Notes: generated by a model from the sequence alone, not told the origin. DNA of 64,000 nt from an uncultured Alphaproteobacteria bacterium (GCA_947367055.1 CANBCI010000003.1:92713-156712), one strand, 5' to 3'; shown: positions 2,694 to 19,827, counted from the stretch's first letter. Made by a program: numbers and translations.

Positions 2694-2702
2694 ACACGCG
2701 CA
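2562..2702. repeat. Direct repeat copy 1 (last 44 codons of nrdG, the stop and 9 nt)
   Basis: 141 bp match 3928-4068 at 136/141 positions. Confidence 0.95.
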
Positions 2703-2705
2703 TGC

Positions 2706-3878
2706 TTAATGGCTGCGCACTTCACGCACTTGATAAGTAATTCTCGCTTGATTTTGCTTAAAAGATTTCTTAATTTGCCGGTCTCTGTTTGTGACTCTTA
2801 TATATCCAATCAACGGGACCATTCCCCATGCAATTTCTGAAAAATTTTGTCTTAACCGCTTGCGCCATGCCATTTGCAGTAATTCTTGCTTTATCTGTTC
2901 AATCGGTTTATTGCGTCCAGTTGCATCCTTATACGGCACAATAATATTCCAATCATAATAACTATGCCATTTAACGGTGCCGTCTTCGCGGAAACTTAAT
3001 TCCATGAACTTGTCGTCACCCGCAATACCACCGCATTGTTTTTCTGGATAAAAGATTTTATAACCGATTTTGTTCTGTGCGGCCCGACCGATACGCATGG
3101 TCGGATTTTCTTCATGAATAACCATGCGTTTATTATTGGCATAGAACACCTGGAAAAACGGAAAAAATAAATCACGCGGTTCAAAACGTAACGGTATTCC
3201 GCGTGCCTTGAAATATTCCGGCTGTAAAACGGTATTGTTTGCCATGCAATAATCCAAACGCGATGACATGATACGAATTTTTGTATTATCAAAATGCTCG
3301 TCGGTGGCAACGCGACATATCAGTTCGCGAACCCCGTCCAATGCGGCTTTTGAACGAAACCTATCAACAGATACATCAAGTTTAAGTATTTTTCCGGCAC
3401 GCGCCAGTTTTGTCTGAATTTTCTGCAAATCCGAATATATCTTGTCACGATTTGGTCCAAATACCCATCGGCAATTTGTTTGAATATTATAAACGTCCGA
3501 ATTTCTCAAATTTATCGAATCAAATACACGCAGCATATAACCGGGTGCAACATCATATATCAAAGACCATTCACCACCGGTCATGCAGGTGCCCTTCCAA
3601 TGTTTCATTGAATTTTGATAATATGCAATATCGGATACCGGCAATACCTGCAATGGGTTATTTGGCCCGGAGCACTCAAAGCAGCGTACACAATTTTCAT
3701 CACACCGATTGGTGCAACGGAACCTAATATCTATCGGGACACCGCGCCATGCGTCCATAAAATGCCGACGCGAAAAGGCCGCGATAAACTTATCCCGAAT
3801 AAACGCAAAAATATTTTGCCGGCCTGCCGCATCCGCATCATTATTGCCCGATATTAAAATAACATTATCTTCATCCAT
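2706..3878 (-). CDS. Radical SAM domain protein, function unknown
   Basis: It carries a CDENCVRC (CX3CX2C) motif. I place the start at the MDEDNVIL Met (3878). The longer ORF call to 4046 reads antisense through repeat copy 2. Confidence 0.6.
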   Translation of the reverse strand: MDEDNVILISGNNDADAAGRQNIFAFIRDKFIAAFSRRHFMDAWRGVPIDIRFRCTNRCDENCVRCFECSGPNNPLQVLPVSDIAYYQNSMKHWKGTCMTGGEWSLIYDVAPGYMLRVFDSINLRNSDVYNIQTNCRWVFGPNRDKIYSDLQKIQTKLARAGKILKLDVSVDRFRSKAALDGVRELICRVATDEHFDNTKIRIMSSRLDYCMANNTVLQPEYFKARGIPLRFEPRDLFFPFFQVFYANNKRMVIHEENPTMRIGRAAQNKIGYKIFYPEKQCGGIAGDDKFMELSFREDGTVKWHSYYDWNIIVPYKDATGRNKPIEQIKQELLQMAWRKRLRQNFSEIAWGMVPLIGYIRVTNRDRQIKKSFKQNQARITYQVREVRSH

Positions 3879-3927
3879 ATCAAGGCATATTTTAATACAA
3901 AAAACATTCTTGTCAACAAAAACAATT

Positions 3928-4068
3928 AAATACATCCCACATTTTGAAGACGCCGCCCACCCCGAAACAGATGCCGCGGCACGCGAACAGTTCTTTAATG
4001 ATGACGCATTGCGCGCGGAAATTGATGCAATGTTTGATACCGTCACATGGCGTGGTTAAACACGCGCA
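3928..4068. repeat. Direct repeat copy 2 (orphan nrdG 3' end)
   Basis: It encodes the same 43-aa peptide KYIPHFED...TVTWRG as nrdG but has no upstream nrdG body. Confidence 0.95.
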
Positions 4069-4101
4069 AAATAAGGTGCCTTCAACTTACACAAAACACA
4101 C

Positions 4102-4130
4102 TTGACAAAAATAACGACAAGTGCTACCAT
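4102..4130 (+). promoter_or_regulatory. Sigma70-like promoter candidate
   Basis: TTGACA, a 17-nt spacer, then TACCAT. Confidence 0.4.
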
Positions 4131-4154
4131 ATTTATAAATTAAAAAGGTCAAAT

Positions 4155-4397
4155 GTGGATAAAAGATTATTGGTTAACTTATCAAAAGCTGTGGCAATGC
4201 CGCTATTAGTAGCGTCCGTCTTAAGCATTATGGTTCGTTCGTTTATACCGCATAATTTTTTAATTACGGCACCGATGACATCTGTATTTTACATTTACCT
4301 TACAAAAATGCGTCACAACACATCATGGCGCAACGCAATTGATATAGCGGCGGCCGAATTTGATAAATTGTGCGAATATTTATCGCGTCGTCGTTAA
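4155..4397 (+). CDS. Small hypothetical membrane protein (GTG start guessed)
   Basis: The frame is open downstream of the promoter candidate and contains a hydrophobic segment (AMPLLVASVLSIMV). No family was recognised. Confidence 0.3.
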   Translation: MDKRLLVNLSKAVAMPLLVASVLSIMVRSFIPHNFLITAPMTSVFYIYLTKMRHNTSWRNAIDIAAAEFDKLCEYLSRRR

Positions 4398-5029
4398 CTA
4401 AAACTGATTTCTTTCTTTGCGCGCCTAAACTTTATTAAATCGGCGGAAAACACATACACGTTCTCGGAATGTTCTTCGCCACCGTTTGCCGCCGTGGCAC
4501 GGTACACCTCGCGTGCACCTTGGGCGCGATAAAAACCGACACTGCAACTGTCGTCTGTATCTATGCGCATTCTTTTAACGCCGCGGGCGGCGGCATCGTG
4601 CATCATTTCCATAAACAGCACGCGTCCCGCCCCGCCGCGATGCCACTTATCAACAATCAATATGTCACATTCCGCATCAAATTGGCGCGCAATACCCGCC
4701 GGCGCATAGTTATAGACATTATAGTATTCACGCAACGCGCCACGGTTCCTTACCGCCAATGGCAAAACGAAATGAACCGCGCGCCAAAAGATGCGCCGAA
4801 ACGCATGACGCCGTGCATTTTTCTGGGAATATCCGGCAAATCCAATCGGCCGACCGTCATTCGCTGTTAAAACCAGCATATCGGTATTTACAGCAAGTAT
4901 TTCGGCGCAGTAAATCCAATCACATAGGCGCCCGGCACCGGTTGACCGCTTGGCCAAATCCCATTCAGCCCCAATCATACGAACCAAATGCCGCGCATCA
5001 CCCAACTTAAAACATCTGATATTATTCAT
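4394..5029 (-). CDS. GNAT-family N-acetyltransferase
   Basis: It has a motif-A-like stretch, VDKWHRGGAGRVLFMEMMHDAAARG. Confidence 0.7.
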   Translation of the reverse strand: MNNIRCFKLGDARHLVRMIGAEWDLAKRSTGAGRLCDWIYCAEILAVNTDMLVLTANDGRPIGFAGYSQKNARRHAFRRIFWRAVHFVLPLAVRNRGALREYYNVYNYAPAGIARQFDAECDILIVDKWHRGGAGRVLFMEMMHDAAARGVKRMRIDTDDSCSVGFYRAQGAREVYRATAANGGEEHSENVYVFSADLIKFRRAKKEISFS

Positions 5030-5070
5030 ATATCAGATTATATCACATCAAACAATGAACCACATAAAAA

Positions 5071-5322
5071 TTATTGTGCCGACGCGTTGTTTTTCTGTCT
5101 GTCTACAAAACCGGCAAAATAAGCCAAATCCATTCCAAGCGCATCCAAAACCTTGGCCAGGCTTTGCAATGACACCCAGCGCGCCTTGCCGTCACGTGTG
5201 TAACGTTTGCTTTTATTAAATGTCGTGGAACTCAATCCGCTTTGCTTGGCCAATCCCGAACAGGATAAATTTTGCGCCGCCGCCATTTCATCCAGCGCAT
5301 TCCAAATTTCTTTATGTGTCAT
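5071..5322 (-). CDS. Small helix-turn-helix DNA-binding protein
   Basis: The HTH reads LSCSGLAKQSGLSSTTFNKSKR. A GGAGAGGGG SD precedes the MTHKEIW start. It is a paralogue of 50744-51016. Confidence 0.6.
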   Translation of the reverse strand: MTHKEIWNALDEMAAAQNLSCSGLAKQSGLSSTTFNKSKRYTRDGKARWVSLQSLAKVLDALGMDLAYFAGFVDRQKNNASAQ

Positions 5323-5487
5323 TTCCCCTCTCCAAAAATTTTTTCTCATACAGCCCATAATTTATTCGGCTTACCGTCTTATTATAGTTGAATAAAGGAA
5401 TAAAATCAACTTAAAGTTATTATGATTTTAATATTTATAAAGTCGCACGCGCACGATAAGGGCCACGGTGATTTTTTACAAAAAAAA

Positions 5488-5516
5488 TTGACACTTGAAA
5501 AATTACGGTCTATACC
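5488..5516 (+). promoter_or_regulatory. Promoter candidate for the DGR operon
   Basis: TTGACA, a 17-nt spacer, then TATACC, about 30 nt upstream of the avd-like ORF. Confidence 0.45.
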
Positions 5517-5546
5517 ACTAAACATAATATTTCCAAAGTTGCAGAC

Positions 5547-6140
5547 ATGACAAACGACAAATTAAGCCGCAATAAGACCATAAAACTGCCCCGCAAAGTA
5601 CAAAACGAGGGCGGCACTGCAAACACAATTGAAGACCTGTTTTCCGTCCGCCAGGGTTCCGCAACCGGATTTGATGTAAAATTCAACAGCGAAAAGGAAC
5701 GCGCCAAAGCCGACCAAATCGACTGCGAATTGGATCAAATTTCCAAAATATCACCGGAATCAAGCGACCTGCTGGTAATAACGCGAACCAAGAAACTGGG
5801 GGCGTACATTTTTGCAATAACAATCAAGACGCCACAGAAATTTCGAAGCATATACATTCGCCGCCTGCATGATTTGTGCATTGACGCATTGGACTGCATG
5901 TACCACGCAAACGCAATAAAGCAGGATTCACCCGCCAACAAACAGCGCCGCGAACAATATCAGACCGATGCGATTATAAAATTAAAATTACTGGGGTATA
6001 TGGCGTTGCTGGCGGAAAATGCGGCATGCATATTACTGCGCCAGTATAAACAAATTTCCATACTGCTGGGCGACGCGATAAATTTGTGCGCGGCCTGGCG
6101 GAAAAGCGACAATGAAAAATGGGAGGCAAAGAACAAATAA
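5547..6140 (+). CDS. avd: DGR accessory variability determinant (Avd)-like four-helix-bundle protein with a basic N-terminal extension of about 70 aa
   Basis: The C-terminal 125 aa or so have the helical heptad pattern of Avd / 23S-IVS-type four-helix-bundle proteins. The gene lies directly upstream of the TR and RT. Confidence 0.6.
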   Translation: MTNDKLSRNKTIKLPRKVQNEGGTANTIEDLFSVRQGSATGFDVKFNSEKERAKADQIDCELDQISKISPESSDLLVITRTKKLGAYIFAITIKTPQKFRSIYIRRLHDLCIDALDCMYHANAIKQDSPANKQRREQYQTDAIIKLKLLGYMALLAENAACILLRQYKQISILLGDAINLCAAWRKSDNEKWEAKNK

Positions 6141-6204
6141 ACAACACACAGATTTGAAATCCGAAAGGTTTCAAGCAAGGGGGAACTTATATTTACGAGC
6201 CGGC

Positions 6205-6317
6205 TTTCTGGTCGGCCTCGTCCAATGAAAACAGTAATGTTCGTTGCGCCGACAATAATGGCGATAAGAATTGGTATAATCCCAAAAATCGCAAAGTTGC
6301 CGGCCGCCCCGATTTGC
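6205..6317 (+). repeat. DGR template repeat (TR)
   Basis: This non-coding 113-nt segment matches 7871-7983. There are 14 mismatches and 13 fall at TR adenines. It contains AAT/AAC/AAA-rich codon-equivalents. Confidence 0.9.
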
Positions 6318-6570
6318 TCTTGAAGAGAAACGACAAAGTTGTGATTGGCAAAGCCACAATGTTTCTATACAACATGCCAGATATGCGGATTTTACATAAA
6401 ACCCGCCCGCGCACAGAGCAAAGGAAGTTTCCTCTTTTCCAACCGCTGTCGGCGATATGCCCAGTGCGGTGGATAAATAAAAAACGCGTCGCGTTTCAAG
6501 AAACATCACGCATTTTAACGCAACCGCTTTATAGTGCTATTGGGTGTTTCTTTTTTTCAATGGTAACAAA

Positions 6571-7620
6571 ATGACACTGGATGAAATATTCACATTTGAA
6601 AACCTGTTTGACGCGCACACGCAATGCCGCCGCGGTAAACAACACAAACGCGGAACGATAATGACGGAACTGGAACTGGGGCAAATCATAAAAAAATTGG
6701 CATCTGATTTAACGCAGCGAAAATACCGGATCGGGAAATATCGTGAATTTAAAATTTACGACCCCAAGGAACGAATAATACGCGCCCTGCCGTACAAGGA
6801 CAGAATGGTTCAAATGTGCTTTTGCAAAAATGCAATGGCGCCACGATTGGAACGGCGCCTGATTTATGACAATGCGGCGTCGCGTACCGGCCGCGGCCCG
6901 GATTTTGCGACGCGGCGCCTGCATGGGTTTATGCGGTCGTCATTTATCACAAACGGCGGCAACGGTGCGTATTTTCTAAAGTGTGACATATCAAAATATT
7001 TCCCCAGCATAAATCATGATATTTTATTGTCAAAACTGCGCCGGGCCGGATTTTCCCCGGATGAAATGTGGTTTATGGAACAAGTAATCCACTCAACAAA
7101 TGCGCCATGCGGCGTGCCCCTGGGCAACCAGACCAGCCAGTGGTTCGCATTGCTGTATCTGGATGAAATAGACCGCCTGATAAAGGAAAAACTGCGCATT
7201 AAATACTATGTGCGATACATGGATGACTTTGTTTTGATTCATTCGGACAAGGCGTTTTTGCAGCAATGCCGCACGGCAATTGAACGCGCCTGTGCGGAAA
7301 AATTGAAACTGCGCCTTAATTCCAAGACACAGATTGGCCGATTAAAAGACGGGCTGGACTTTCTGGGGTTCAACCATAAACTGACCGATACGGGCCGCGT
7401 TATAAAAAAGGTGCGCGCATCCGCCCGCCTGCGCCAGCGTCGCTATCTTAATACAATCGCAAAGTATTATATGAACGACATTGTGGACGATGAATATTTA
7501 CAGGCGCGATGCGCCGCATTTCGGGCGCATTTGGCGGGAACCGGATCACAAAAATTCATAACAAATGAAATAAACAGCCTGCGTCGTCGCAAGCGATTAC
7601 AGCGCAAATGTGGCAAATAA
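6571..7620 (+). CDS. DGR-type reverse transcriptase
   Basis: It carries the YMDD box (YVRYMDDFVLI) and the DGR-diagnostic LGNQTSQ motif ([ILV]GxxxSQ) in place of the retroviral QGxxxSP. About 350 aa. Confidence 0.9.
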   Translation: MTLDEIFTFENLFDAHTQCRRGKQHKRGTIMTELELGQIIKKLASDLTQRKYRIGKYREFKIYDPKERIIRALPYKDRMVQMCFCKNAMAPRLERRLIYDNAASRTGRGPDFATRRLHGFMRSSFITNGGNGAYFLKCDISKYFPSINHDILLSKLRRAGFSPDEMWFMEQVIHSTNAPCGVPLGNQTSQWFALLYLDEIDRLIKEKLRIKYYVRYMDDFVLIHSDKAFLQQCRTAIERACAEKLKLRLNSKTQIGRLKDGLDFLGFNHKLTDTGRVIKKVRASARLRQRRYLNTIAKYYMNDIVDDEYLQARCAAFRAHLAGTGSQKFITNEINSLRRRKRLQRKCGK

Positions 7621-7632
7621 ATATTTAAAACC

Positions 7633-7661
7633 TTGTAAATTGCATAAAAATAGGGTATAAT
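7633..7661 (+). promoter_or_regulatory. Promoter candidate for the target gene
   Basis: TTGTAA, a 17-nt spacer, then TATAAT, in the RT-target gap. Confidence 0.5.
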
Positions 7662-7676
7662 TTCACATAACAGGGG

Positions 7677-9686
7677 ATGAGAAATAACAGATGCCGGGAT
7701 ACAAGTATTATGGAAACAACATTTCTAACCGAAGATCAAATATGGGGCGATAATGCCCTGCCTGTATTAAAAGAATATGGTGTTGCCGCCGCCCCAACCG
7801 ATTTAGCCGTTATATTAGGCGCAGTACTTGGCGGCAAATCAGTTGACAAAGAAAAACATTTGTCTGGACATTTCTGGTCGGCCTCGTCCGATGAGGGCAG
7901 GCTTGTTCGTTGCGCCGACTATAATGGCGATAGGGATTGGTATTATCCCAAGAATCGCATAGTTGCCGGCCGCCCCGCTTTGCCTAAATCTTCCACATCT
8001 ATAATTCGGTCGAGCGCAGCGAGACCGAATCGCAAAATTGGAAATATTCAAGTAATCGAATACGGCACATATCCACAAACCGCCGCCCCACAAAAAATCG
8101 CTGATGAACTAGAATCCGCCTATAAACGCCACAGTCTGTCCACAACGGGCAATAAATATACGTTTGATACACGTGCCTTGGACGATTATAACAATGGCTT
8201 TTCCGGGGCGGATTATGATGAATATGCGCACAATGGCAAACGATACATCCGCGTCTTGGGAAAACCATACGACGGCGACAGTAAAACCCACGACGGGCGA
8301 CAAATAGAAAAAGACAAGGTTTATTGGGTCGAAGTCCAACCGGTTGAATGGCTGGCCGACAAAAGCGGCGTCTGGGTATCGCGGGAATCGCTGTTTGCGG
8401 GCATTCGTTTCAATCCGCCTGGTGCTTATGACGGCGATTTTTCCAAAACGGAAATGAACCAATACCTGAAAAAATATTTTACACCGCAATTAACGCAAAG
8501 CAACACTTCAATTCACACCGCCACACGTGACGCATCGGCCAAGGAAAAATTTACCCAGGCCGCGAAAAAACTGTCCCATGGCGTCCAGGTAATTGATGAA
8601 CCGATGCCAATCAAAGAACAAATCTCGTTCTATGTAAAAACCGGAAAATCATTTATGCTGCACGGCCCCAGTGGTATCGGTAAAACGGCCCGCGTCGAAG
8701 CAATCGATCCGGATTTGACCGCGGTGCCGTTATGGAACGGCGTTCTGCCCGAAGATATTGTCGGCAAAGTGCGTTACCCGAACGGGAATATTGAATCACT
8801 GATGACGCCGTCGCAAACCGGCGAAGACGCAATTGAAAAACTGAACGGCGGCGGTGTATGGGTGGCGCCGGACTGGTATAATGAACTGACGCGCAAATGC
8901 GCGGCCGAACCGGACAAAACGCACGTCCTGTTTATCGACGAGGTGACCAACGCCAAACCGACAACGCAGTCTCTGATATTCCATATCGTTTTGAAAAAAT
9001 CAATCAGTCCGTCAAAGGGCAAACTGCCTGCAAACGCGGTTGTTGTTCTGGCCGGAAATGACAAAAGCGAATCCGGCGCGGCATACAATATGCCCGCGCC
9101 CCTATTCCGACGCATGTCGGGGCATATCCGTCTGGAATACAATCTGCCGGAATGGTTGGAATGGGCGTCTGAAAAAAGCCGCAAGCATCCCAAAGACCCG
9201 GCCCGCCTGAATGCACACCCGTTGATTGCACAATTCCTGGCGGCCAACCCCCAGGCGTTCTATTCAAATTATAACGAAGAAAACCCCGAACAATGGGCGA
9301 TTGACCCGCGCGGCTGGGAACAAATATCTGACATCATATACGACAACGGCAATACAATCCGGCGTGAACTTATTGAAAACAAAATCGGCCGGGAAAATGC
9401 CGCCGCATTAATGGCCTTTGCGCGCGAACCGATGATTACACTTGACGATGTGGTAAACGGGACATACAACACGGACGACATTCCGCAAAATGCCGACATG
9501 CGCCTGGCGACCACATTGAACTTGCGTTATGCCAACACGCGCCAGGTGAAAATCGTCCGCCAATTCATCCAGCAACACTTGGGGGCGGAAAACTTGGCGA
9601 TATTTGATTCCCTGTGGGTGGGCGATGACCCCGAACGCGCGATTCAAATCACACAAATGCAAAGTTTTATAAAAGAGGGGCGATAA
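7677..9686 (+). CDS. DGR variable protein: N-terminal ligand-binding-like region containing the VR, fused to a MoxR/AAA_5-like ATPase
   Basis: The VR covers aa 65-103. Walker A is GPSGIGKT, Walker B is VLFIDEV, and PLFRRM looks like an Arg-finger region. An alternative start is 7710 (METTF). Confidence 0.85.
   Translation: MRNNRCRDTSIMETTFLTEDQIWGDNALPVLKEYGVAAAPTDLAVILGAVLGGKSVDKEKHLSGHFWSASSDEGRLVRCADYNGDRDWYYPKNRIVAGRPALPKSSTSIIRSSAARPNRKIGNIQVIEYGTYPQTAAPQKIADELESAYKRHSLSTTGNKYTFDTRALDDYNNGFSGADYDEYAHNGKRYIRVLGKPYDGDSKTHDGRQIEKDKVYWVEVQPVEWLADKSGVWVSRESLFAGIRFNPPGAYDGDFSKTEMNQYLKKYFTPQLTQSNTSIHTATRDASAKEKFTQAAKKLSHGVQVIDEPMPIKEQISFYVKTGKSFMLHGPSGIGKTARVEAIDPDLTAVPLWNGVLPEDIVGKVRYPNGNIESLMTPSQTGEDAIEKLNGGGVWVAPDWYNELTRKCAAEPDKTHVLFIDEVTNAKPTTQSLIFHIVLKKSISPSKGKLPANAVVVLAGNDKSESGAAYNMPAPLFRRMSGHIRLEYNLPEWLEWASEKSRKHPKDPARLNAHPLIAQFLAANPQAFYSNYNEENPEQWAIDPRGWEQISDIIYDNGNTIRRELIENKIGRENAAALMAFAREPMITLDDVVNGTYNTDDIPQNADMRLATTLNLRYANTRQVKIVRQFIQQHLGAENLAIFDSLWVGDDPERAIQITQMQSFIKEGR
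7871..7983 (+). repeat. DGR variable repeat (VR)
   Basis: It lies in frame inside 7677-9686 (FWSASSDEGRLVRCADYNGDRDWYYPKNRIVAGRPAL). It ends just after an all-G/C 13-mer, GCCGGCCGCCCCG, followed by CTTTGC. Confidence 0.9.
8004..8030 (+). other. Stem-loop downstream of the VR
   Basis: ATTCGGTC / GACCGAAT forms an 8-bp stem with an 11-nt loop, starting 20 nt after the VR end. It is absent downstream of the TR. Confidence 0.5.
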
Positions 9687-9689
9687 AAC

Positions 9690-10040
9690 ATGACACCTGC
9701 ACAAAACGCAAAACTAACCCAGGTTTTACAGTCAAACGCGACATGGCCGCTGATTATTGTGGGCATGATGGCGGCACGGGCCCCGAATGCAACCGTTATA
9801 CCTGCGACAATTGCCGAACGCGACCTGCATAACGACACAATTCTAATAAAACCCTACATTGTGATTGACGGACTGGACAACATATCCGCCGACGCACAGC
9901 GCAAGTTTGTTCCCCTGCTAAAAGACCGGCGAACCGGAATGCATAAACTGCCGGCGGATGTGCGTATCATTGTCCCGGTGCGTTCGGCCGACAAACTGTC
10001 AAAACAAATAAAAGACCTGGCATTGATATATAATGTTTGA
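9690..10040 (+). CDS. Small protein resembling a Walker-A-less AAA+ core fragment
   Basis: IVIDGLDNISADAQRKFVPLLKDRRTGMHKLPADVRIIVPV resembles the MoxR Walker B to sensor-1 stretch. It is translationally coupled on both sides. Confidence 0.5.
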   Translation: MTPAQNAKLTQVLQSNATWPLIIVGMMAARAPNATVIPATIAERDLHNDTILIKPYIVIDGLDNISADAQRKFVPLLKDRRTGMHKLPADVRIIVPVRSADKLSKQIKDLALIYNV

Positions 10041-11463
10041 CCAACTCAAAGAATATATTTTCAAAGCGTCCGAAGAAAAACTGCGCCAGCAGGAAGAAAT
10101 AGAATACGTGCGCGATCGCGTGTTGGCGAAATTCCCGTTGCTGGGGACAACCATGGCGCGATTGAAAACCGCTCCCGCAAAGGTCATTGATGACGAAACA
10201 ATTGACACCGCCGCAACGGACGGACGAACAGTTTTTTATAATCCGGACTGGTTTATGCCCCTGTCCGACGATGAAAAGGTGTTTGTCTATGCGCACGAGG
10301 TGATGCACGTCGCATTCAACCATATTTTGCGCAGTGGCAACCGCAATCACAAGATATGGAACCAAGCCACCGACGCCGTCATAAATCAAATATTAAAATC
10401 CGAAAGCCTGCCGATGCCGGAAAACGGTGTGGATATAGCCGATGCAATCCAACATTCCGCCGAAGAGATGTATGAAAAATTGTTGCGGGAAAATAAAAAC
10501 AACAAAAACGACAAAAACGAACAGGCCGGCCACGACAACCACAATATTTGGAAAAAGGCACTAGAACGCGCTGAAAAAGAAAAACAGAAACAGAAAAATA
10601 ATAATGGCGCCAGTGGCGACGAAAAAAACGAAAAACAACAAAACCAGGATCAGGGTGGCACCCAAAATCAGGCGCAAAAAAATCAGTCGGAAACGGACAA
10701 AAAAAATTCACCAAACGACAGTGAAAGTGAAAAAAACTTTCCCCAGGAAAATCAGCGCACCCGGGCGCAGCGCGCCGCCCAGGCCCAGCGCGCCTTAAGC
10801 GCCGCAAAAAATCATGCCATGAACCAGGCCGCCCGGGATTCCGTCCAAAATTTCGGTCCGGTCGGCGAATCCGACGCCGTTGTTGATTGGCGCCGGGTGC
10901 TAAAAAAATCACTTGAAGAAGAGCATGACAAATGGTCGTACCGCCGCAGCGACGAAGATAATGATTTTATGGCGCGCGTTGAAGAACTGGACGACGAAGA
11001 ACGTGCCGACACCGAAGTCATGCTGGACACCAGCGGTTCGGTCAGTGAAAGTTTTCTGCGTGAATTCCTGCGTCAATTGAAACCGCTGCTAAAAAACGGC
11101 AACCTGCACGCGGGATGTTTTGATGAACTCTTTTACGGCTTAAATGACATCAAAACCAATGACGACATTGACAACTTTAAAATTATCAGTCAAACCGGCG
11201 GAACACGATTGGATGTGCCGGTCAAATCATTTTCAAAAAAACCAGATATAAATAAAATAATTTTTACCGACGGATATTGCAGTCCACATGCAATGCCTGA
11301 TGCCAGCACACGAAATATAAAAAATTTGATATGGCTGGTCTATGGCAATCGTGATTTTCACCCGATTTGCGGCCGCGTGATACAGATTGACCCCACCACA
11401 ATCCACAACAACTTTACAATGGTGCCACACGCGGCGATTATTGACCCAAGCCATCACCGGTAA
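10033..11463 (+). CDS. DUF2201-type putative metallopeptidase plus VWA-like domain protein
   Basis: It has an HExxH motif (YAHEVMHVAFNH) in the N-terminal half and a MIDAS-like motif (MLDTSGSVS) in the C-terminal half. A K/N/Q/E low-complexity linker joins them. Confidence 0.8.
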   Translation: MFDQLKEYIFKASEEKLRQQEEIEYVRDRVLAKFPLLGTTMARLKTAPAKVIDDETIDTAATDGRTVFYNPDWFMPLSDDEKVFVYAHEVMHVAFNHILRSGNRNHKIWNQATDAVINQILKSESLPMPENGVDIADAIQHSAEEMYEKLLRENKNNKNDKNEQAGHDNHNIWKKALERAEKEKQKQKNNNGASGDEKNEKQQNQDQGGTQNQAQKNQSETDKKNSPNDSESEKNFPQENQRTRAQRAAQAQRALSAAKNHAMNQAARDSVQNFGPVGESDAVVDWRRVLKKSLEEEHDKWSYRRSDEDNDFMARVEELDDEERADTEVMLDTSGSVSESFLREFLRQLKPLLKNGNLHAGCFDELFYGLNDIKTNDDIDNFKIISQTGGTRLDVPVKSFSKKPDINKIIFTDGYCSPHAMPDASTRNIKNLIWLVYGNRDFHPICGRVIQIDPTTIHNNFTMVPHAAIIDPSHHR

Positions 11464-11544
11464 ATCGGACCGGCACTATAAAACAATCTGCGGCCATTTA
11501 TACGACCCAACTATACCAACACCCAAAATAACCAAATAGACTTT

Positions 11545-11886
11545 ATGCGCAATGGCGATGATTTAATTCTGGCGCGGCCGGTGGTGCTGAACAAATGGAC
11601 AGGTAGCAATAAGTATAATACGGGACGCGCGGGCCTGATGACACGGACCGATAATCACAATATGATTGTGCTGGCATTTGCAACTGCCTGGCGTTATCGC
11701 ACGGCATATGAAAAACATGGCGATTTAGAATATGCTATAAAGTCCGAACAAACATCATGGCGCAGTCTGTATCACTACCTGAATCTGGCGTATATGCACC
11801 CTGAAAAAGTGAACAGTATTTTATCCGGCAAAGAGCCATGCAGTACGGCGAAAATCTTTGCAATTGCCCCAAAACACCAAATTTAA
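11545..11886 (+). pseudogene. C-terminal remnant of a serine-recombinase-family protein
   Basis: It has only the tail region (LAFATAWRYR...LNLAYMHPEKVNSILSGKEP) and no catalytic domain. It is a diverged paralogue of 20309-20770. Confidence 0.5.
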
Positions 11887-11976
11887 TTGCTTTTTATCGT
11901 GTTTTGTGGTATAGTAAAAGTGTACTAATTTTAGTCGGCATTGTGCCGACTTTTTTATTTTTCAAAAGGATTTACA

Positions 11977-12981
11977 ATGGCATTAAAAGAATACACCACA
12001 ATGACAACCAAAGATTGGTTGCGGGTCGCCAGCACCGCATACAAGGCATATGTAAAAACAAGAACAGGAAACAATCAAGGCACATCAGATGACGAAGAAA
12101 AATGCGATGGCATAATTCAGGTTGGCGGCTATACCCGTTCCGATGGCGCAAAAGTTGGTGCATATGAAAGAATTTGCCCATATCATTATCAAGGCGGGAA
12201 ACGTCCAAATGAAGAAAACAAAGAGAAAAAATTTTCTTTAACCACAGGAATTTCTTCAAGTAGTAATGCCAACAGCAATGATGTTATAAAACTGAAAACA
12301 TACTTAAACAAAATGAATTATTACAAACCGGAACCGCGCAGTGAAACAGAAGACAAGTTTCACGGGTATCCGAATGACGCCTTGGTGGATGCGATTAAAA
12401 ACTTTCAAAAAGATAATGGATTGATTGCGACCGGTAAAATATTTCCAGGCGACGCGACTGAATCTGCAATAAACAGTAAATTTGAATCGCACGGCGTGAC
12501 ATTTGAATATCCAGTGAATACAAACAAGAATCAAATCGCAATATTTGATGGCAAATCACTGACATTGTATGAAAATGATAAAAAAATAAAATCATGGGAC
12601 GGAATGTCTGGAAAGCCTGATTATCAAGGCAAAGAAAACCAAGGTTTAAAAAATAAAGGCCCATTACCAGAAGGTACATACGTTGCAAGGCAGTCAAAGA
12701 TACAAAATATAGATCTAAAAAATGCTGCTTTGGGTTCGGCAAGCGCTATCGGCATAAAAGCCGGCGGATGGCCAGGTTCTTATTATTCATGGGGCAAGCA
12801 CAGGGTTTGGCTGGAAGCATCACAAGAAACAAACACATACAATCGAAACAAATTTAGCATACATGGCGGTTGGCGCCCAGGTTCTGCAGGCTGTATTGAT
12901 TTGACCGATGGGATAAATACTTTTATTAAAGAATTAGAAAGTACTGGCAAAGACTTGGTTATTAAAGTAAAATACGAATAA
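11977..12981 (+). CDS. Tlde1/DUF2778-like L,D-transpeptidase-fold toxin with a peptidoglycan-binding domain
   Basis: The PG_binding_1-like segment is DALVDAIKNFQKDNGLIATGKI. The C-terminus has GPLPEGTY and HGGWRPGSAGCID (an H...SxGC catalytic motif). Confidence 0.65.
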   Translation: MALKEYTTMTTKDWLRVASTAYKAYVKTRTGNNQGTSDDEEKCDGIIQVGGYTRSDGAKVGAYERICPYHYQGGKRPNEENKEKKFSLTTGISSSSNANSNDVIKLKTYLNKMNYYKPEPRSETEDKFHGYPNDALVDAIKNFQKDNGLIATGKIFPGDATESAINSKFESHGVTFEYPVNTNKNQIAIFDGKSLTLYENDKKIKSWDGMSGKPDYQGKENQGLKNKGPLPEGTYVARQSKIQNIDLKNAALGSASAIGIKAGGWPGSYYSWGKHRVWLEASQETNTYNRNKFSIHGGWRPGSAGCIDLTDGINTFIKELESTGKDLVIKVKYE

Positions 12982-13346
12982 TGAAACGATGGCAAAAGAT
13001 AATTTTCGGCATATTCTTAGCAATACATGCGTTGATTATGTATGCATGCGTTTATGATTATTATGATGCAATTATCAAAAATTGCGCGGGCTGGGGCCCG
13101 GGCTTTGACTGTCCTTGGGGCAGTGAGGCCATGGGGGTTGCGTGGACAGATCCATATGTATACATCTCCATGCTAAGCAGGGATTTTATGATGTCTATTG
13201 TATTTGTTATGTTCTCAATTCTCGCAGTACATAAAAAGAACTATACAATTGCAATCTGGTTCTTAGCATTACCGTTATTGGTAGGTTTTTGTGCTCATAT
13301 TGCAGAGATACCGCTGTCAGCATCGATTATGTTTACACAGACATAA
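12981..13346 (+). CDS. Multi-pass membrane protein, candidate cognate immunity protein
   Basis: TAATG start/stop overlap with the toxin gene. It has 3-4 hydrophobic helices. Confidence 0.5.
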   Translation: MKRWQKIIFGIFLAIHALIMYACVYDYYDAIIKNCAGWGPGFDCPWGSEAMGVAWTDPYVYISMLSRDFMMSIVFVMFSILAVHKKNYTIAIWFLALPLLVGFCAHIAEIPLSASIMFTQT

Positions 13347-14101
13347 ATTGTCTTATAAATGGTAAAAACAGGTATCGGCATGAAAAAATATGTTCATATT
13401 ATATTGGCATGTGTTGCGGCGATTGCATTTTGTGCTTTTATGATATTTTTTTTGGGATTTGGCTCTTTTTAACCGAGTCGGCAAGATGTGTAGCATCTGG
13501 GAAAATATATTTTACGAATATGGCAGAAGCGAAAACCGTATGGCTGTATTGATGGCTGATATGGATATTTTGGGTGTTTTTGGCTCTTTACTGATATTCG
13601 AAATTCCAATGTTGGAACTGTTTATGCGATATAAATATTGGATAATGTTAATACCTGTTATTGGCTTCATCTTATTTTTGTTTATTGCGCCAATAACTTT
13701 ATGTCCGGTGTAATACGGATGATATTAGAACACATGTTGTTTTAGGCTTTCCACTGCCAAGGCGAAAAAGGCCAATGTATAGAAAGTGGTTTTTATTTGC
13801 CAATTTTTGAAATTTCGCGATATACCGCGGATGAGTTATAAATAAAAAGCCCCGATTGCCCGGGGCCTTGCGCGTTATATGTTTGTATATTTAAAATATA
13901 ACTGATTCCTGGCGGAGGTAGATAATTATACGGTCTATTGCACACAACAACAGGGAATTTAATTCAAAATCTATCTTTTCTATTGATTTTTTAGCCAATT
14001 TTTGATATAATCTTCGTTAAGATAAGCAGGCGATTTTGTCGCCGTTTTTTATTGCTCTGCCCGATGTCGGCGGGGCTTTTTTATTACCCAAAGGAATAAC
14101 C

Positions 14102-14752
14102 ATGAAAAAGTCACACATTGTCATTTCCGACATAACATGCATGAAAGAAAAGTTCTGCATTGCCGGTTTTGACACGTATGAAAAGCGTATGAAACGTCTA
14201 ATGATTGACGGTGGATATTGGGATGCGAATCAAATTCCGGCCACATATTGCGAAATACTTGTTGATAACGAAGAATTCAAGGAGCCACGTGATTACCCAC
14301 ACCGAACCGAAGATGTAAATATAGATTTTGATTCAATTGAAGTTTTGCAAGAATTTGAACCAGGAAAAGATCTGGCAAATGCTTTGCGCGATAGCGTTTC
14401 AAAAGATATCCAGGGCATATTCCATCATCAGGTCAAAGAAGATACCTATGTGCCACAGAAAACCAAATGCCCTTCGTTGGGCGCCATATTGATTCCGGCA
14501 CACAATATTGAATTCTTTACAGAAGACGGCAAATTACGCGCCCGTATTACAGACTATTCCAAACAAACATATGAATTAAAGGTCAGTTGCAAATACCTGC
14601 GTGATATATTCGAAAAAGACAAAGATGTCACAGGTTTGAACAATGCTGTTGCCGCCAGCCAGTATGCCCACTGTCGCATAGGATTGGCACGAAAGTTTCT
14701 TATGCGGGAAAATCATTGCTATTTGATGTTAAACGGGCTATTTTTGTATTGA
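14102..14752 (+). CDS. Hypothetical protein (216 aa)
   Basis: An AAAGGA SD is present. The stop lies 1 nt from the DUF488 start. No family was recognised with confidence. Confidence 0.6.
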   Translation: MKKSHIVISDITCMKEKFCIAGFDTYEKRMKRLMIDGGYWDANQIPATYCEILVDNEEFKEPRDYPHRTEDVNIDFDSIEVLQEFEPGKDLANALRDSVSKDIQGIFHHQVKEDTYVPQKTKCPSLGAILIPAHNIEFFTEDGKLRARITDYSKQTYELKVSCKYLRDIFEKDKDVTGLNNAVAASQYAHCRIGLARKFLMRENHCYLMLNGLFLY

Positions 14753-14753
14753 T

Positions 14754-15179
14754 ATGACAAAGATTTTTACGATTGGTTTTAGTGGTAAAAGTCCTGACGC
14801 GTTTCTGGATGTGCTAAACGCGGTGCGTGTGCGTGCTGTTTGGGACATACGCCTGTGGCGAACAAGCATATACGTGCCATTCTACAGTGGCGACAGTTTG
14901 GCGGGTGTGCTGGGGAAGCGGTACGAATATCACCCAGAATTCGCCCCAAGCACCGAAATCCTTGCCGGTTACAAAGATGGCCGCATAACCTGGCCTGATT
15001 ATGAGCGTATGTACCATGAATTGCTGACCACACGCCATCCGACCGCAGGAATGACACCGGACGCGCTTGACCGCATTTGCCTGCTATGCACTGAAAAATC
15101 CGCCACACAATGCCACCGACGCATTGCTACCGAATACATTGCAGCACAATTTTCTGATATTGAAATTGTGGATTTATAA
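14754..15179 (+). CDS. DUF488-family protein
   Basis: The signature reads IFTIGFSGKS...VWDIRLWRTS...LLCTEKSATQCHRRIATEYI. Confidence 0.8.
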   Translation: MTKIFTIGFSGKSPDAFLDVLNAVRVRAVWDIRLWRTSIYVPFYSGDSLAGVLGKRYEYHPEFAPSTEILAGYKDGRITWPDYERMYHELLTTRHPTAGMTPDALDRICLLCTEKSATQCHRRIATEYIAAQFSDIEIVDL

Positions 15180-16613
15180 TTATCCCCCAAAATCTAGTGT
15201 ACAAGAGCTACTAAAAATCGTTAATGTCTTGCATGCCCTGCTTATTGCTACATAAAAATTCTTACAATCCATTGTTTGTGCATCTAAAACAATCACGTTA
15301 TCAAATTCTAAACCCTTTGTAAGAAGCGTAGAACCAATACACTTACTATGTAAGCTTCGACCTGCTTGGCGTATTTTGTTCTTATATGCATACATTGAAT
15401 CACATATAGACATATCAGATATAGCAGCATCTTTCACTGCTTTTATTATGGCGTTCAATAGTTCCGGGCGCTGATATTTTAATTTAAGTTCATCTTTCAT
15501 GAATTTGACGATATAATGTAACGATTGTTTATCTATGCAATTGTTTTGCAATTTTTCGATGTGGGATTTTAGCAAATTGCATTTTTCTATATCCGATTGA
15601 CTCCTTTTACATTTTAATCCTGTTGCATTAAACCAGTTAGCAATATCTGTTTTATTAAATATGAATGATTCGCAAATTTCTTTAAATAAAGAAAATTGTC
15701 TTTCAGATGTGCAGAGATCATCTAATTTGGCCGATATATTATAAAAATCTCTATCATCAATTGATTCAATTAATTGAAACCGCTGCAACCCCAAAGAATT
15801 ACGTAATTTTTGTCTCTGTTTTATTTGCCTATTATCTATTATCAGTATATTATCATAGGTATTAGCTAGTCTCAAAAGGCTTCTTTTATACAAAGTATCC
15901 TCATAAACACCACCAGATGTTCGTATAAAAGTTATGCCAGGCCTATCTACCGACAAATCTATAATGCTATCTACTTCAATATGTCGTCTAATTTCTTTTA
16001 TGGACTCCCCTAATTCAAGATTGTTGCTATTTGTACTCCTCCACCGCCATGGTATTTCCAACGTTCCTGCCTCATCTGAAAAATCACATAAACACTCATT
16101 AAATTCAACCAGTTGTTCTCTAAATTCAAAAATACCTTGCAGAGGATCGCCTAGTACATGCATTGGAATAAAATCTTTCAGTTTCATTAGCATATTATGC
16201 TGTTTTAACGTACAATCCTGATATTCATCAATAAATATACCTGTATATGTTTTTTTGATTATTCCAATTATTGGTCTCTTTGAAAATAATTCCGTCGCTT
16301 TTTCAATAATAATATCATGAAATCCAACTGCCTTTTGTTCTGGAACTTGATTTGCCATAAATCCTAGAACATATTTTTGAGCATAACCGCATATTGTTTC
16401 AACATTATATGCGGATGGTCGAACTCCTTGTTTTAATAGTTTTGACTTTATTGAAGCCACACCTGCGTGAGTATGCGTTAAAATAAGCTGTTTCCCCTTA
16501 TTGCGTTCATACGTATACTTGATACACTCTGCAATAAATTGCGTTTTTCCATAACCCGCCGGCGCAATCACTTTTGTCTTTAAACCACTTATAAACGTCT
16601 CTATATCTACCAT
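15180..16613 (-). CDS. gajB: UvrD-like superfamily 1 helicase (Gabija GajB-like)
   Basis: It has the APAGYGKT Walker A, FIDEYQD motif II and LTKGLEFDNVIVLD / YVAISRA C-terminal motifs. The start abuts the gajA-like stop. Confidence 0.8.
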   Translation of the reverse strand: MVDIETFISGLKTKVIAPAGYGKTQFIAECIKYTYERNKGKQLILTHTHAGVASIKSKLLKQGVRPSAYNVETICGYAQKYVLGFMANQVPEQKAVGFHDIIIEKATELFSKRPIIGIIKKTYTGIFIDEYQDCTLKQHNMLMKLKDFIPMHVLGDPLQGIFEFREQLVEFNECLCDFSDEAGTLEIPWRWRSTNSNNLELGESIKEIRRHIEVDSIIDLSVDRPGITFIRTSGGVYEDTLYKRSLLRLANTYDNILIIDNRQIKQRQKLRNSLGLQRFQLIESIDDRDFYNISAKLDDLCTSERQFSLFKEICESFIFNKTDIANWFNATGLKCKRSQSDIEKCNLLKSHIEKLQNNCIDKQSLHYIVKFMKDELKLKYQRPELLNAIIKAVKDAAISDMSICDSMYAYKNKIRQAGRSLHSKCIGSTLLTKGLEFDNVIVLDAQTMDCKNFYVAISRACKTLTIFSSSCTLDFGG

Positions 16614-18251
16614 TTATGCGTCAATCCATTCTGATAACGCGTTCCAAACTCTTTTCATATGACAGTCAGAAACCGCCCCCCAATTCGCGAATATAGTATT
16701 TCCCAACGTTTCAGCCTTATCAATTCTTTTGTACCATTCTCTATCTTTGTTAATTGACAATTTTGCAATTCTAATTCTATCTCTCTCAATATCAACTACA
16801 TTTCCCAAGGAAGAAGTATCTTCTTTTGAAATTATGCCTTCTATTACATCCCAAGGCAAATCTTTAAAAATTTGATGTTCTATATCATTACCGTCTTCAG
16901 AATCAAAAACCTGTATCCCATTGTCCCTCAATGCTTGTTTCTGTCCATTTACATCGGCTCTATCAGAATCTAAAAAAACACACACATCAAAGCCTAAGTC
17001 CTTTATTTTCTTAGCTCTATCAATTGCGCTACTTCCTTCTCCTACAATATAAAAACAATCTTTAGATGCCATTGACGGTAAATTTTGTTTTACACGCCAA
17101 GAATCCATAGCTCTGCATATTCCTATTTCTGTTTTTCCTTCACAAACAATGATTTTATTACAAAAAAATCCTTCAGGGTTTGCTCTAACAATGGCCTGCC
17201 AATTATCTTTTGAAGGAATATTTTTAATATACACATTTTCTTTGTCATCGAACTTTTTTACTAAATATAAATCATTTGAATTAAGTTCTACAATTGCATC
17301 TCGCGAATGAGTAGTCAGAAAAATCTGCCCCTTGTTTTCATTTTTTAACGATGATACTATTTGTCTAATTCTATCAGGTTCCAAACCTTGCTCTATTTCA
17401 TCTATCAACACAATTCCACCACGTTTTGCCAGAGCTAATTGTATCGCCATAGAAATTATACGTTTTGAGCCCTTACCCATTAAACGCAATGGGATATTAT
17501 TATCGTTATTTAAACATACCTTGTTATCTTTGATAACAATATCCTTAAAATCAATTGATGTTTTCATTGCACCAATATTTAATCCCAATATACCTACATA
17601 TTTTGTTACTTCATTTATTGCACTTTCTGTTTGTGGAAACCCCGCGCTATCTATATTTATTTTTACTTCACGCAGCCTATCAATAATTATATTACGCTCA
17701 TCTGTTTCTGACGAAAAATTCTTCAACAATTGATAAAGAGGCGACCCCTTACTCCAAGAAAAATGCTTATCAACATAGTCAGATATAAAAGAACAGTTTA
17801 ATTTTGATCTGTCTGTTGCGGATATCGCTTTGGGCTCCTGACGCCCAGTCACCATTTCCCATTTTGGTTCCAATGTTTTATCCACAGTTAATCTAATAGT
17901 ATATACATCTTCCAACTCCGGGTTATCTATTACTTCATCTGTAATTTCACCCGTACTTTTATTATATTGTCTTTTGTATAAACCAAATTTATCTTCTGTT
18001 TGCAATATATCCGGAATATTTGCTAATGTAGCCTCTATTTTTATTGGTTGAGTAACATCTGCATTAAAGAAGTCTGTATCATAAAATTGCAAAATATGGC
18101 TGGGGTATAAAACATAATAAATAGAATCCAAAATTGTTGTTTTTCCGCTATCTCCTCTACCAATTAAGCAAATAAAATTTTTATCAAACGTTTCTGAAAG
18201 ACATTTGATTCCACGAAAATTTTCTATATCCAACTTTAATATATTACTCAA
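16614..18251 (-). CDS. gajA: OLD-family ATPase plus Toprim nuclease (Gabija GajA-like)
   Basis: The N-terminus has GRGDSGKTT, followed by VLIDEIEQGLEP. The C-terminal Toprim has IIVCEGKTE and FLDSDR. Confidence 0.8.
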   Translation of the reverse strand: MSNILKLDIENFRGIKCLSETFDKNFICLIGRGDSGKTTILDSIYYVLYPSHILQFYDTDFFNADVTQPIKIEATLANIPDILQTEDKFGLYKRQYNKSTGEITDEVIDNPELEDVYTIRLTVDKTLEPKWEMVTGRQEPKAISATDRSKLNCSFISDYVDKHFSWSKGSPLYQLLKNFSSETDERNIIIDRLREVKINIDSAGFPQTESAINEVTKYVGILGLNIGAMKTSIDFKDIVIKDNKVCLNNDNNIPLRLMGKGSKRIISMAIQLALAKRGGIVLIDEIEQGLEPDRIRQIVSSLKNENKGQIFLTTHSRDAIVELNSNDLYLVKKFDDKENVYIKNIPSKDNWQAIVRANPEGFFCNKIIVCEGKTEIGICRAMDSWRVKQNLPSMASKDCFYIVGEGSSAIDRAKKIKDLGFDVCVFLDSDRADVNGQKQALRDNGIQVFDSEDGNDIEHQIFKDLPWDVIEGIISKEDTSSLGNVVDIERDRIRIAKLSINKDREWYKRIDKAETLGNTIFANWGAVSDCHMKRVWNALSEWIDA

Positions 18252-18370
18252 GCTGTTACCTCTATTAAATTACTAATAATTTTACAAAGACAATATATAG
18301 AATTCAAGCACATTAATTTTAAGTAGATTACATTATTTACATAGCAGCAAAATCCCCATAAACAATCAAC

Positions 18371-18399
18371 TTGATTTACTTTATTTATCACGGTACACT
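18371..18399 (+). promoter_or_regulatory. Promoter candidate for leader RNA copy 1
   Basis: TTGATT, a 17-nt spacer, then TACACT. Confidence 0.45.
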
Positions 18400-18405
18400 T
18401 TTCTC

Positions 18406-18588
18406 TTGAACCCAATGGGAATTGGGTTCGGGGCTGTGGTGGCCCGCAGACGCGGCATTTGTCGTTAAAATCCCCCGACTTTGGTCGGGGAGCCGTTCGC
18501 TATAAAACAGGGCTTGCCCGAAGGCTGCGGAGCATTCGTTTGCTGACACCAACTCCCCGGCCGTCAATTCCGTTGACGGTCTTTGATT
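18406..18588 (+). ncRNA. Structured leader RNA, family copy 1 (unassigned)
   Basis: It has a 9-bp P1 hairpin at 18408-18429, conserved blocks shared with 63757-63995 and 26860-27065, and an intrinsic terminator at 18561-18588. Confidence 0.6.
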
Positions 18589-18608
18589 TATAAACAAGGG
18601 GAATTTCT

Positions 18609-18839
18609 ATGATTATTACTACAGATTTAGATCTCTCAGTAACTTTATTCGTTGTATGCATTACCGTGATTATAGGTGGCGTGATTAAGCGTGCAACAGC
18701 AAATAGTAAAGCCAAAGCCTATGCTGAATATGTAGAAGAATGCAAAAAGTCCAAAAAGGAACCACTGGATTATGTTTCGTGGGAACGATTGGAAGCCGCC
18801 GCCCCACGATCATATGCAGACGATGACGATTGGGAATAA
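18609..18839 (+). CDS. Small single-pass membrane protein with an acidic tail
   Basis: A GGGGAA SD is present. It has one TM helix (VTLFVVCITVIIGGVI) and a DDDDWE C-terminus. Confidence 0.5.
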   Translation: MIITTDLDLSVTLFVVCITVIIGGVIKRATANSKAKAYAEYVEECKKSKKEPLDYVSWERLEAAAPRSYADDDDWE

Positions 18840-18841
18840 AT

Positions 18842-19525: not shown

Positions 19526-19530
19526 CAAAA

Positions 19531-19827
19531 ATGACGAAAATATCGTTTATTATATTAGGCTTATTAAGTTTAACGGCATGTGCTACGGAAACAAGAGCTG
19601 TAGAAGTTTAGCACATAGATCCAGAATGGGAAATCTATAGTATTACATACAATGTAAAGCTGATCTTGAACAATTGTCAATATGACGACGACTGGGCCGA
19701 TGAGCAGAGTTACATCTGGTCTGGAAACTTTGAAAACACACATAAATCATTCTCGTTTACAACAGCCATGGGGGGGCAAAGGACTGTCCCTGTGTATTCT
19801 GGTGTTTGTTCAGTAAAAAAATTCTAA
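19531..19827 (+). pseudogene. Small lipoprotein gene interrupted by one in-frame TAG
   Basis: It has a signal peptide and lipobox (ILGLLSLTAC). The TAG is at 19609-19611, and the frame stays open for 71 more codons. Confidence 0.45.

Follow-up and report, generated by a model that had tools for sequence, protein, structure and literature searches.

What does a diversity-generating retroelement (DGR) achieve when the protein that it diversifies is predicted to stay inside the cell? The familiar role of DGRs is to retarget surface and phage-tail proteins, and the question is raised by a locus in a 64,000-nt stretch of DNA from an uncultured Alphaproteobacteria bacterium (GCA_947367055.1 CANBCI010000003.1:92713-156712), the whole of which we call the window and number from its first letter. 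There, a DGR and the operon downstream of it occupy positions 5547-11463, all on the + strand, and the diversified gene encodes an N-terminal variable domain, a MoxR-like AAA+ ATPase and a helical C-terminal region. Our analysis reveals that the element is a complete DGR, active in nature. We put at roughly 60% the probability that the locus is a diversifying sensor or selector that recognises foreign proteins inside the cell, is linked to remodelling or proteolysis, and serves in conflict or immunity.

Listing of open reading frames (ORFs) and a search for direct repeats reproduced the block, and every part claimed in an earlier interpretation of this DNA (hereafter the sequence-only reading) is present: an avd gene, a template repeat (TR), a 253-nt spacer, a reverse transcriptase (RT) with LGNQTSQ and YMDD motifs, and a target gene. 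By repeat comparison, the non-coding TR (113 nt, 6205-6317) has its counterpart in a 113-nt variable repeat (VR) at 7871-7983, with 14 mismatches between the two. Of these, 13 affect a TR adenine, the exception being a T>G at 7901; as 31 of the 113 nt are adenines, the hypergeometric P of this bias is 6e-8. Translated in the VR frame, the TR reads FWSASSNENSNVRCADNNGDKNWYNPKNRKVAGRPDL, in which AAY codons are abundant, and 11 of the 14 differences affect codon position 1 or 2. No second VR was found in the 64-kb window.

Activity is evident from a second contig (L001), which comes from an ENA assembly other than that of the window and corresponds to window positions 4916-10867. Over these 5952 bp the two sequences differ by 23 substitutions, every one of them in 7890-7960, i.e., inside the VR; the TR is the same in both. 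L001 has 20 mismatches between TR and VR, each of them at a TR adenine, with the template T at position 7901, and the two target proteins differ at 15 residues, all within aa 72-95. Whether or not the contigs derive from the same sample, they represent two alleles of one otherwise identical locus. Because the two differ only in the VR, and because the mismatches of L001 to its TR are all at adenines, the element is active in nature. Across 15 related DGR loci, 246 of 270 TR/VR mismatches are likewise at TR adenines, so that the paralogy with unbiased mismatches that the sequence-only reading had set against its own proposal does not describe these repeats. Variation is also concentrated in the VR among the members of six clusters of homologues formed at 90% identity (that of the window and five others), with 40-129 distinct sequences per DGR-linked cluster; a DGR-less homologue (P0066), with no RT nearby, is a single invariant sequence on at least 42 contigs.

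The RT (6571-7620; 349 aa from a probable ATG at 6571, in an ORF that opens with a GTG at 6544 and would encode 358 aa) matches RVT_1 at 5.2e-17 and PHROG phrog_1423 at 2e-98. Its best match among solved structures is PDB 8ub7, a 328-aa "Reverse transcriptase" (E 2.6e-37, aa 10-329) that is presumably the bRT of a Bordetella phage; group II intron and retron RT structures score only about 1e-11. A tblastn search of phage genomes returned, at 4e-35, the RT of Bordetella phage BMP-1 (30% identity, 94% query coverage), along with those of the DGR phages FP_Lagaffe (Faecalibacterium) and VP585 (Vibrio) and of crAss-like phages. Judged by these matches, the RT belongs to the DGR clade, as the sequence-only reading had expected. 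The avd gene (5547-6140) encodes a 197-aa protein that matches PHROG phrog_3206, "Avd protein of DGR", at 1.4e-13 (aa 71-194) and NCBIfam DivGenRetAVD at 4.6e-4 (aa 75-185, profile positions 1-103 of 104), the latter below the family cutoff; there was no match in Pfam and no meaningful one among solved structures. Its N-terminal extension of ~70 aa is conserved in relatives, and full-length Avd homologues (47-65% identity) are encoded upstream of the RT in 15 related loci.

The cis elements point in the same direction. At its 3' end (7962-7983) the VR has an adenine-free GC-rich run followed by GCTTTGC, for which the TR counterpart is GATTTGC, and this TR-A/VR-C difference recurs unchanged in all 14 related loci for which the TR/VR alignment extends to the 3' boundary. 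By its conservation, the A/C pair behaves like the initiation of mutagenic homing (IMH) site and its TR counterpart (IMH*) that direct DGR homing. Another element stands 21 nt 3' of the VR and inside the target ORF, namely a hairpin (8004-8030) in which the 8-bp stem ATTCGGTC/GACCGAAT closes the 11-nt loop GAGCGCAGCGA. Its loop motif, GARCGMAGYGA, is found at the target in 15 of 15 DGR-bearing related loci and in just two loci without a nearby DGR (L002 and L010), in which a DGR may be present elsewhere in the genome or may have been lost recently; no TR was detected within 22 kb of the DGR-less operon L002. Compensatory changes affect five of the eight base pairs, some of them changing encoded amino acids, and the covariation score was reached by none of 500 shuffles. 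From motif and covariation together, the hairpin is probably the target-recognition stem-loop of the DGR; a stem-loop 3' of the VR, with a loop of 4 nt, is known at the target site of the BPP-1 DGR. A further GC-rich stem, capped by a GAA loop, lies ~50 nt past the VR in some relatives. On the RNA side, the TR 3' end and the structured spacer (6318-6570) show strong conservation in an alignment of nine species covering 6297-6570 and adopt a common structure of 67 pairs, 26 of which show compensatory changes; TR positions 6309-6320 pair with spacer positions 6415-6424, leaving the IMH*-specific adenine unpaired or bulged. An Rfam scan of the locus gave no family match.

What, then, does the element rewrite? 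The target gene (7677-9686) encodes 669 aa, or 658 aa from a probable start at 7710, and the VR covers aa 66-102 of the 669, i.e., the gene's 5' end, a point that the sequence-only reading had not spelled out. An AlphaFold2 model of aa 12-316, confident to about aa 270 (mean pLDDT 89.2, pTM 0.83), delimits an N-terminal domain carrying the VR at aa 12-273 (7710-8495). In the models, the variable codons fall in loops around a beta-hairpin whose strands span model residues 66-69 and 75-78, the variable positions being 61-65, 70-76 and 79-84. Foldseek searches of PDB gave nothing better than E 0.09 for the N-domain and nothing better than E 1 for a sub-domain of 107 residues (aa 12-118) modelled alone; both results being noise, a C-type lectin fold for VR display was rejected, and the locus is not of the Mtd/TvpA/FGS type, in which the VR sits on such a fold, usually at the C-terminus. 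The best BFVD match to the N-domain model was a DUF6273 protein (E 0.045, probability 0.41). DUF6273 (PF19789) was matched by none of 59 homologues at E<=0.1, and weakly, as a whole-protein match, by 2 of 10 multi-domain relatives of the N-domain. A circular permutation, an unproven idea that arose from a resemblance of motifs to DUF6273, was also tried and rejected: 10 constructs with the C-terminal part moved before the VR part gave no DUF6273 match. No Pfam family was found over aa 1-300 of the target in any of the 59 homologues.

The N-domain is not confined to ATPases. Its profile detected 2712 representative clusters (50% identity) in a library of 1.84 billion proteins, many members being stand-alone proteins of 265-400 aa; its relatives (P0187-P0332) also include tandem duplications and fusions to ankyrin repeats or DUF4116. 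A long hydrophobic run occurs in 2 of 146 N-domain relatives. As far as such comparisons can tell, the N-domain is a widespread, cytoplasmic-looking module.

Following the N-domain, the AAA+ core of the target (aa 326-479; 8652-9113) matches AAA_5, its best named Pfam family, at 1.8e-3, with 18.7 bits against a Pfam gathering score of 22, a match that recurs at E<=0.1 in 57 of 59 ATPase homologues, and PHROG phrog_1297 (ATPase) at 1.5e-37 (aa 312-621). The profile of the ATPase family weakly matches the MoxR-type structure 2r44 (0.0047) and CbbQ/NorQ (0.13), and the label "MoxR-like ATPase" is attached to two homologues, both from one source (JGI). The 59 homologues show little or no variation in Walker A (GPSGIGKT), in Walker B (VLFIDE) and in the conserved N and RR residues downstream. 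The last gene of the operon (10033-11463) encodes a 476-aa zincin metallopeptidase and VWA protein, matching DUF2201_N at 5.9e-32, the VWA-like DUF2201 at 7e-7 and PHROG phrog_1314 at 3.7e-63, with an HEVMH motif at aa 88 and a metal-ion-dependent adhesion site (MIDAS) motif, DTSGS, at aa 332; among full-length homologues, 48 of 49 retain HExxH and all 49 a DxSxS-type motif. DUF2201 is almost absent from the literature. The sequence-only reading had named a MoxR-type ATPase partnered with a VWA protein, and Pfam upholds the partner but leaves AAA_5 short of its threshold. With their motifs kept, the ATPase and the zincin-VWA partner are apparently catalytically competent, and the ATPase is always accompanied by a gene for such a partner.

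Between these two genes lies one for a small conserved protein of 116 aa (9690-10040), whose ORF overlaps that of the partner by 8 nt and which follows the ATPase gene in 46 of 74 loci. It has no match in any family library searched (Pfam, NCBIfam, PHROG). In hhalign it aligned, weakly (E 0.004, probability 8%), to the Walker B-to-sensor-1 segment of the ATPase in the expected register, and it is possibly a degenerate half-AAA module. A crude hydropathy test detected no signal peptide or transmembrane (TM) segment in the operon proteins, which bears out what the sequence-only reading had stated for the target; a cytoplasmic location is predicted for all three.

When one genome per species was scanned, 72 loci emerged, every one in uncultured Alphaproteobacteria or Clostridia of gut, rumen or faecal origin. 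At 15 of the 72, the ATPase gene has upstream of it an avd-TR-RT cassette ordered as in the window (6.6 kb away in one case); other alphaproteobacterial loci have the full three-gene operon and the N-domain, with no DGR within 10 kb. The trio thus occurs both with and without a DGR, the two states that the sequence-only reading had proposed to look for. The ATPase N-terminus varies by lineage, as a full N-domain, a partial one or unrelated sequence, and in the ATPases of Clostridia the first 100-300 residues are missing or replaced. Given the DGR-less operons and these lineage-variable N-termini, the conserved unit is the ATPase, the small protein and the zincin-VWA partner; the DGR is, by this comparison, an add-on in one alphaproteobacterial branch.

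How does such a locus compare with known DGRs? With the prototype, the BPP-1 DGR (avd-TR-brt, target mtd), it shares (i) Avd, a TR, a structured spacer and an RT with I/LGxxxSQ and YMDD motifs, (ii) adenine-specific mutagenesis, (iii) a GC-rich IMH at the VR versus an IMH* in the TR, (iv) a stem-loop 3' of the VR, and (v) the avd-TR-RT core order. It differs in that the target here is downstream of the RT, whereas that of BPP-1 is upstream; the target here is a predicted cytoplasmic ATPase, whereas BPP-1 diversifies a tail-fibre protein whose C-terminus adopts a C-type lectin fold; and the hairpin loop has 11 nt, compared to 4 nt in BPP-1. The sequence-only reading had called the gene order non-canonical. 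This does not hold for the core, since avd-TR-RT is the commonest DGR core, B1 (Wu et al. 2018, PMC5758913), but it does hold for what follows: what is unusual is the downstream target, the N-terminal VR (3 of 372 DGRs in the same survey) and the fusion of the variable domain to an ATPase. In the account of Roux et al. (2021), cellular targets are mostly membrane-anchored, with C-terminal C-lec VRs, and ATPases are not mentioned.

The idea of a DGR-diversified sensor inside the cell is not new, because Kaur 2020 (PMC7159879) described domains diversified by DGRs in MoxR-vWA conflict systems, which Dore 2024 (PMC10907252) developed further as "antigen sensors"; the concept of a DGR-diversified intracellular MoxR/vWA sensor is thus already published, and it is the architecture in the window that is new. 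The published VMAP systems, from cyanobacteria and Chromatiales, resemble the locus in having a predicted ligand-binding domain varied by a DGR, a MoxR-like ATPase with a vWA component, targets predicted to be cytoplasmic and the notion of an antigen sensor. There, the variable domain is a C-terminal FGS/C-lec domain that is usually joined to the vWA component; the third part is a large VMAP protein (a peptidase, cyclase or adaptor); the effectors are trypsin or caspase domains; and the hosts are multicellular (PMC7159879, PMC10907252). In the window, by contrast, the variable domain is N-terminal and on the ATPase itself, the partner combines a DUF2201_N zincin with DUF2201, the product of the third gene is the 116-aa protein, and the hosts are uncultured Alphaproteobacteria of gut and rumen. 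The locus was found to contain no VMAP, trypsin or caspase component, the search having used no VMAP-specific profile, so that a highly divergent VMAP is possible. Nor does the vWA component carry C-terminal FGS or effector domains, DUF2201 itself being C-terminal with nothing after it.

Around the locus, the sequence-only reading had named Gabija and a toxin module as neighbours, and both were recovered. GajA (16614-18251; PADLOC, 2e-157) and GajB (15180-16613; 1.3e-114) are encoded on the - strand, and a Tlde1/YkuD-type gene (11941-12981, +) encodes a 346-aa protein with a peptidoglycan-binding and an L,D-transpeptidase-like domain, as in a toxin effector. Small hydrophobic ORFs after the Tlde1-like gene (12981-13713) are possible immunity proteins. 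Between that gene and Gabija, a 238-aa protein (14036-14752, +) has a sub-threshold match to DuOB (dual OB-fold; 5.4e-5). Beside nrdG, a 446-aa ORF (2706-4046, -) has no Pfam or PADLOC match, and its CxxxCxxC motif (CDENCVRC) suggests an unrecognised radical-SAM-like enzyme. The genes for a helix-turn-helix (HTH) regulator, a GNAT protein, the 446-aa ORF, the Tlde1-like protein and the DuOB protein were considered as parts of the system and rejected, being absent at all loci except L001; the Tlde1-like gene is not conserved beside related DGR loci. Some homologous loci elsewhere have as neighbours HsdR, PIF1/WYL, a restriction-modification system, resolvases and a Mu F-like gene. The stretch from 2700 to 22000, between nrdD/nrdG (153-2693) and lgt (22159-22980), has a G+C content of 41.3% versus 48.9% elsewhere in the window, as expected of an acquired island; the G+C content of the DGR block is 47.3%.

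Two promoter-like sites accompany the block. Upstream of avd, TTGACA (5488-5493), a 17-nt gap and TATACC make up a weak site (5488-5516, +), which a promoter scan missed because its -10 hexamer is without the final T; the promoter of the sequence-only reading is therefore there as letters, resembles the consensus only and is not conserved in related loci. Before the target operon, TTGTAA, 17 nt and TATAAT (7633-7661, +) match 10 of 12 consensus positions, again as a consensus match only, and most related loci have a site of the TTG...TATAxT type upstream of their target gene.

We read the locus as follows. The element introduces adenine-specific errors as it copies the TR into the 113-nt VR, located at the next gene's 5' end, and this rewriting alters the beta-hairpin and flanking loops on the surface of the N-domain (~260 aa). 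In the mechanism that we propose from there on, the variable N-domain would serve as the ligand-recognition module of the ATPase machine, with a changing target as its ligand, the most plausible one being a protein that belongs to a phage or another mobile element. Through the ATPase and its VWA partner, ligand binding would then be linked to proteolysis or remodelling. Choosing substrates or adaptors is usually the task of the N-domain in AAA+ proteins, and the VWA/MIDAS partners of MoxR ATPases bridge to clients. Since a hypervariable selector makes sense only against a changing target, a sensor of foreign proteins is the most economical model. Consistent with it are the modular N-terminus, the kept Walker, HExxH and MIDAS motifs, the lack of a TM segment or signal peptide, and the defence or mobile-element neighbours at some loci.

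Several observations weigh against this assignment. In PADLOC-DB v2, the ATPase and the VWA protein match no family at E<=0.001, with GajA/GajB as the positive control. Some homologous operons lie among plain housekeeping genes, and the neighbours in the window (HTH regulator, GNAT, 446-aa ORF, Tlde1-like, DuOB) recur only in the otherwise identical contig L001. The assignment of the ATPase to MoxR relies on sub-threshold matches. The AAA+/DUF2201 pair need not be a defence system, because phages carry it beside nucleotide-metabolism genes. Lastly, the VR contains in-frame stop codons in 5 of 13 related species assemblies (L003, L004, L012, L025 and L026); such nonsense VRs may mean that many alleles are non-functional or real OFF alleles, or they may be consensus chimeras of mixed populations. 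The TRs of L003, L004, L007 and L026 themselves contain an in-frame TAA, a codon that must mutate for the VR to be readable, and cluster members are often called as N-terminally truncated ORFs (e.g., 549 versus 651 aa); the window's own VR is intact. The immunity sensor of the sequence-only reading accordingly keeps its published precedent and its nearby Gabija, as an interpretation set against an empty PADLOC search, housekeeping contexts and unconserved neighbours. A more ambitious version, which we offer tentatively and consider rather doubtful, is that of an adaptive cytoplasmic recognition machine of a new class, in which the DGR would reprogramme the N-domain of an AAA+ unfoldase, a scaffold that lacks detectable similarity to C-type lectin or Ig and would be a third display fold, invader proteins would be passed to, or would activate, the zincin-VWA protein, and nonsense alleles would act as an ON/OFF switch.

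Two alternatives that retain an active DGR survive best, each of them unlikely in our view. In the first, the operon would be a MoxR/VWA-type chaperone or maturation machine, and the N-domain would tune the choice of an endogenous or nutritional client. This has in its favour that MoxR-VWA pairs are classically maturation factors, that several homologous operons lie among housekeeping genes, and that neither the ATPase nor the VWA protein matched PADLOC. RavA-ViaA, NorQ-NorD and CbbQ-CbbO, in which an AAA_5-like ATPase likewise stands beside a VWA/MIDAS protein, would be the models. They differ from the locus, however, in which the partner has a zincin HExxH, the N-domain is hypervariable, the MoxR matches are sub-threshold and no client-enzyme genes are adjacent. 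An endogenous client that stays the same gives little reason to hypermutate the surface that binds it; the patchy distribution of the operon, the swapped N-terminal domains and the frequent mobile-element or defence contexts also argue against such a role, as does the conserved zincin active site in the partner, which is missing from known MoxR partners.

In the second, which we regard as no more probable than the chaperone or maturation role, the DGR and operon would form a selfish or mobile-element module for counter-defence, rival exclusion or host takeover, descended from a phage ATPase-metallopeptidase pair. The ATPase and its partner are indeed phage families (phrog_1297 and phrog_1314), which lie side by side and in the same order in Klebsiella phage KP8, the pair also occurring in jumbo phages, and resolvases or a Mu F-like gene adjoin some loci. 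The phage ATPase, however, has ~350 aa without the N-domain, and the phage pair has neither a DGR nor the small middle gene. In KP8, an N4-like phage (L075; MG922974.1, 11890-14104), the ATPase and a DUF2201-type "metallopeptidase" are encoded beside dCTP deaminase and ThyX; jumbo phages also carry the partner family, which some records describe as an "HNH endonuclease", apparently a mis-annotation. A phage or prophage origin of the block itself was rejected: megablast of 5400-11500 versus phage records, tblastn of the N-domain versus phage genomes, and a scan of IMG/VR viral contigs for the N-domain were all empty. Moreover, there are no phage structural, integrase or replication genes nearby in the window, and many loci occupy stable chromosomal positions.

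Far less probable is the classical use of a DGR, whereby the target would be a secreted or surface adhesin or a tropism-switching phage receptor-binding protein. Its N-terminal VR, as a beta-hairpin between two loops, does resemble the tentaclins and DUF6273-type targets of gut phages (PMC10743442, PMC11792537), which also share the gut setting, and there is the weak DUF6273 signal. Yet tentaclins are phage-borne, with Ig-like domains after the variable domain, whereas here an AAA+ ATPase, conserved and apparently active, is fused behind it and there is no phage context; homology of the N-domain to DUF6273 is not established, given the absence of matches among the 59 homologues and in the permuted constructs. 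The lack of a detectable signal peptide or TM segment, and the rarity of long hydrophobic runs among N-domain relatives (2 of 146), likewise speak against export. Lastly, ordinary paralogy of TR and VR, or a DGR that is a dead relic, deserves practically no credence: the single off-adenine difference (T>G, 7901) is set against the adenine bias (P=6e-8), a non-coding TR and conserved cis elements, and the comparison with L001, in which otherwise identical contigs differ in the VR alone and at TR-adenine positions, refutes it.

Returning to the sensor of foreign proteins, intracellular-sensor DGRs have so far been proposed for multicellular cyanobacteria and sulfur bacteria, always with C-terminal lectin folds (PMC7159879, PMC10907252). 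The locus in the window and its relatives would apply that logic, built differently, in uncultured Alphaproteobacteria of gut and rumen, and the locus bears on whether the C-type lectin fold is the sole DGR scaffold. The more ambitious version, if true, would carry DGR-based "antigen sensing" beyond multicellular bacteria, to ordinary unicellular gut commensals and to a new architecture. The family also has experimental appeal, offering a unit of ~6 kb, natural alleles that differ in the VR alone, and DGR-less sister operons as controls. With it, DGR-based adaptive recognition inside the cell could become directly testable.

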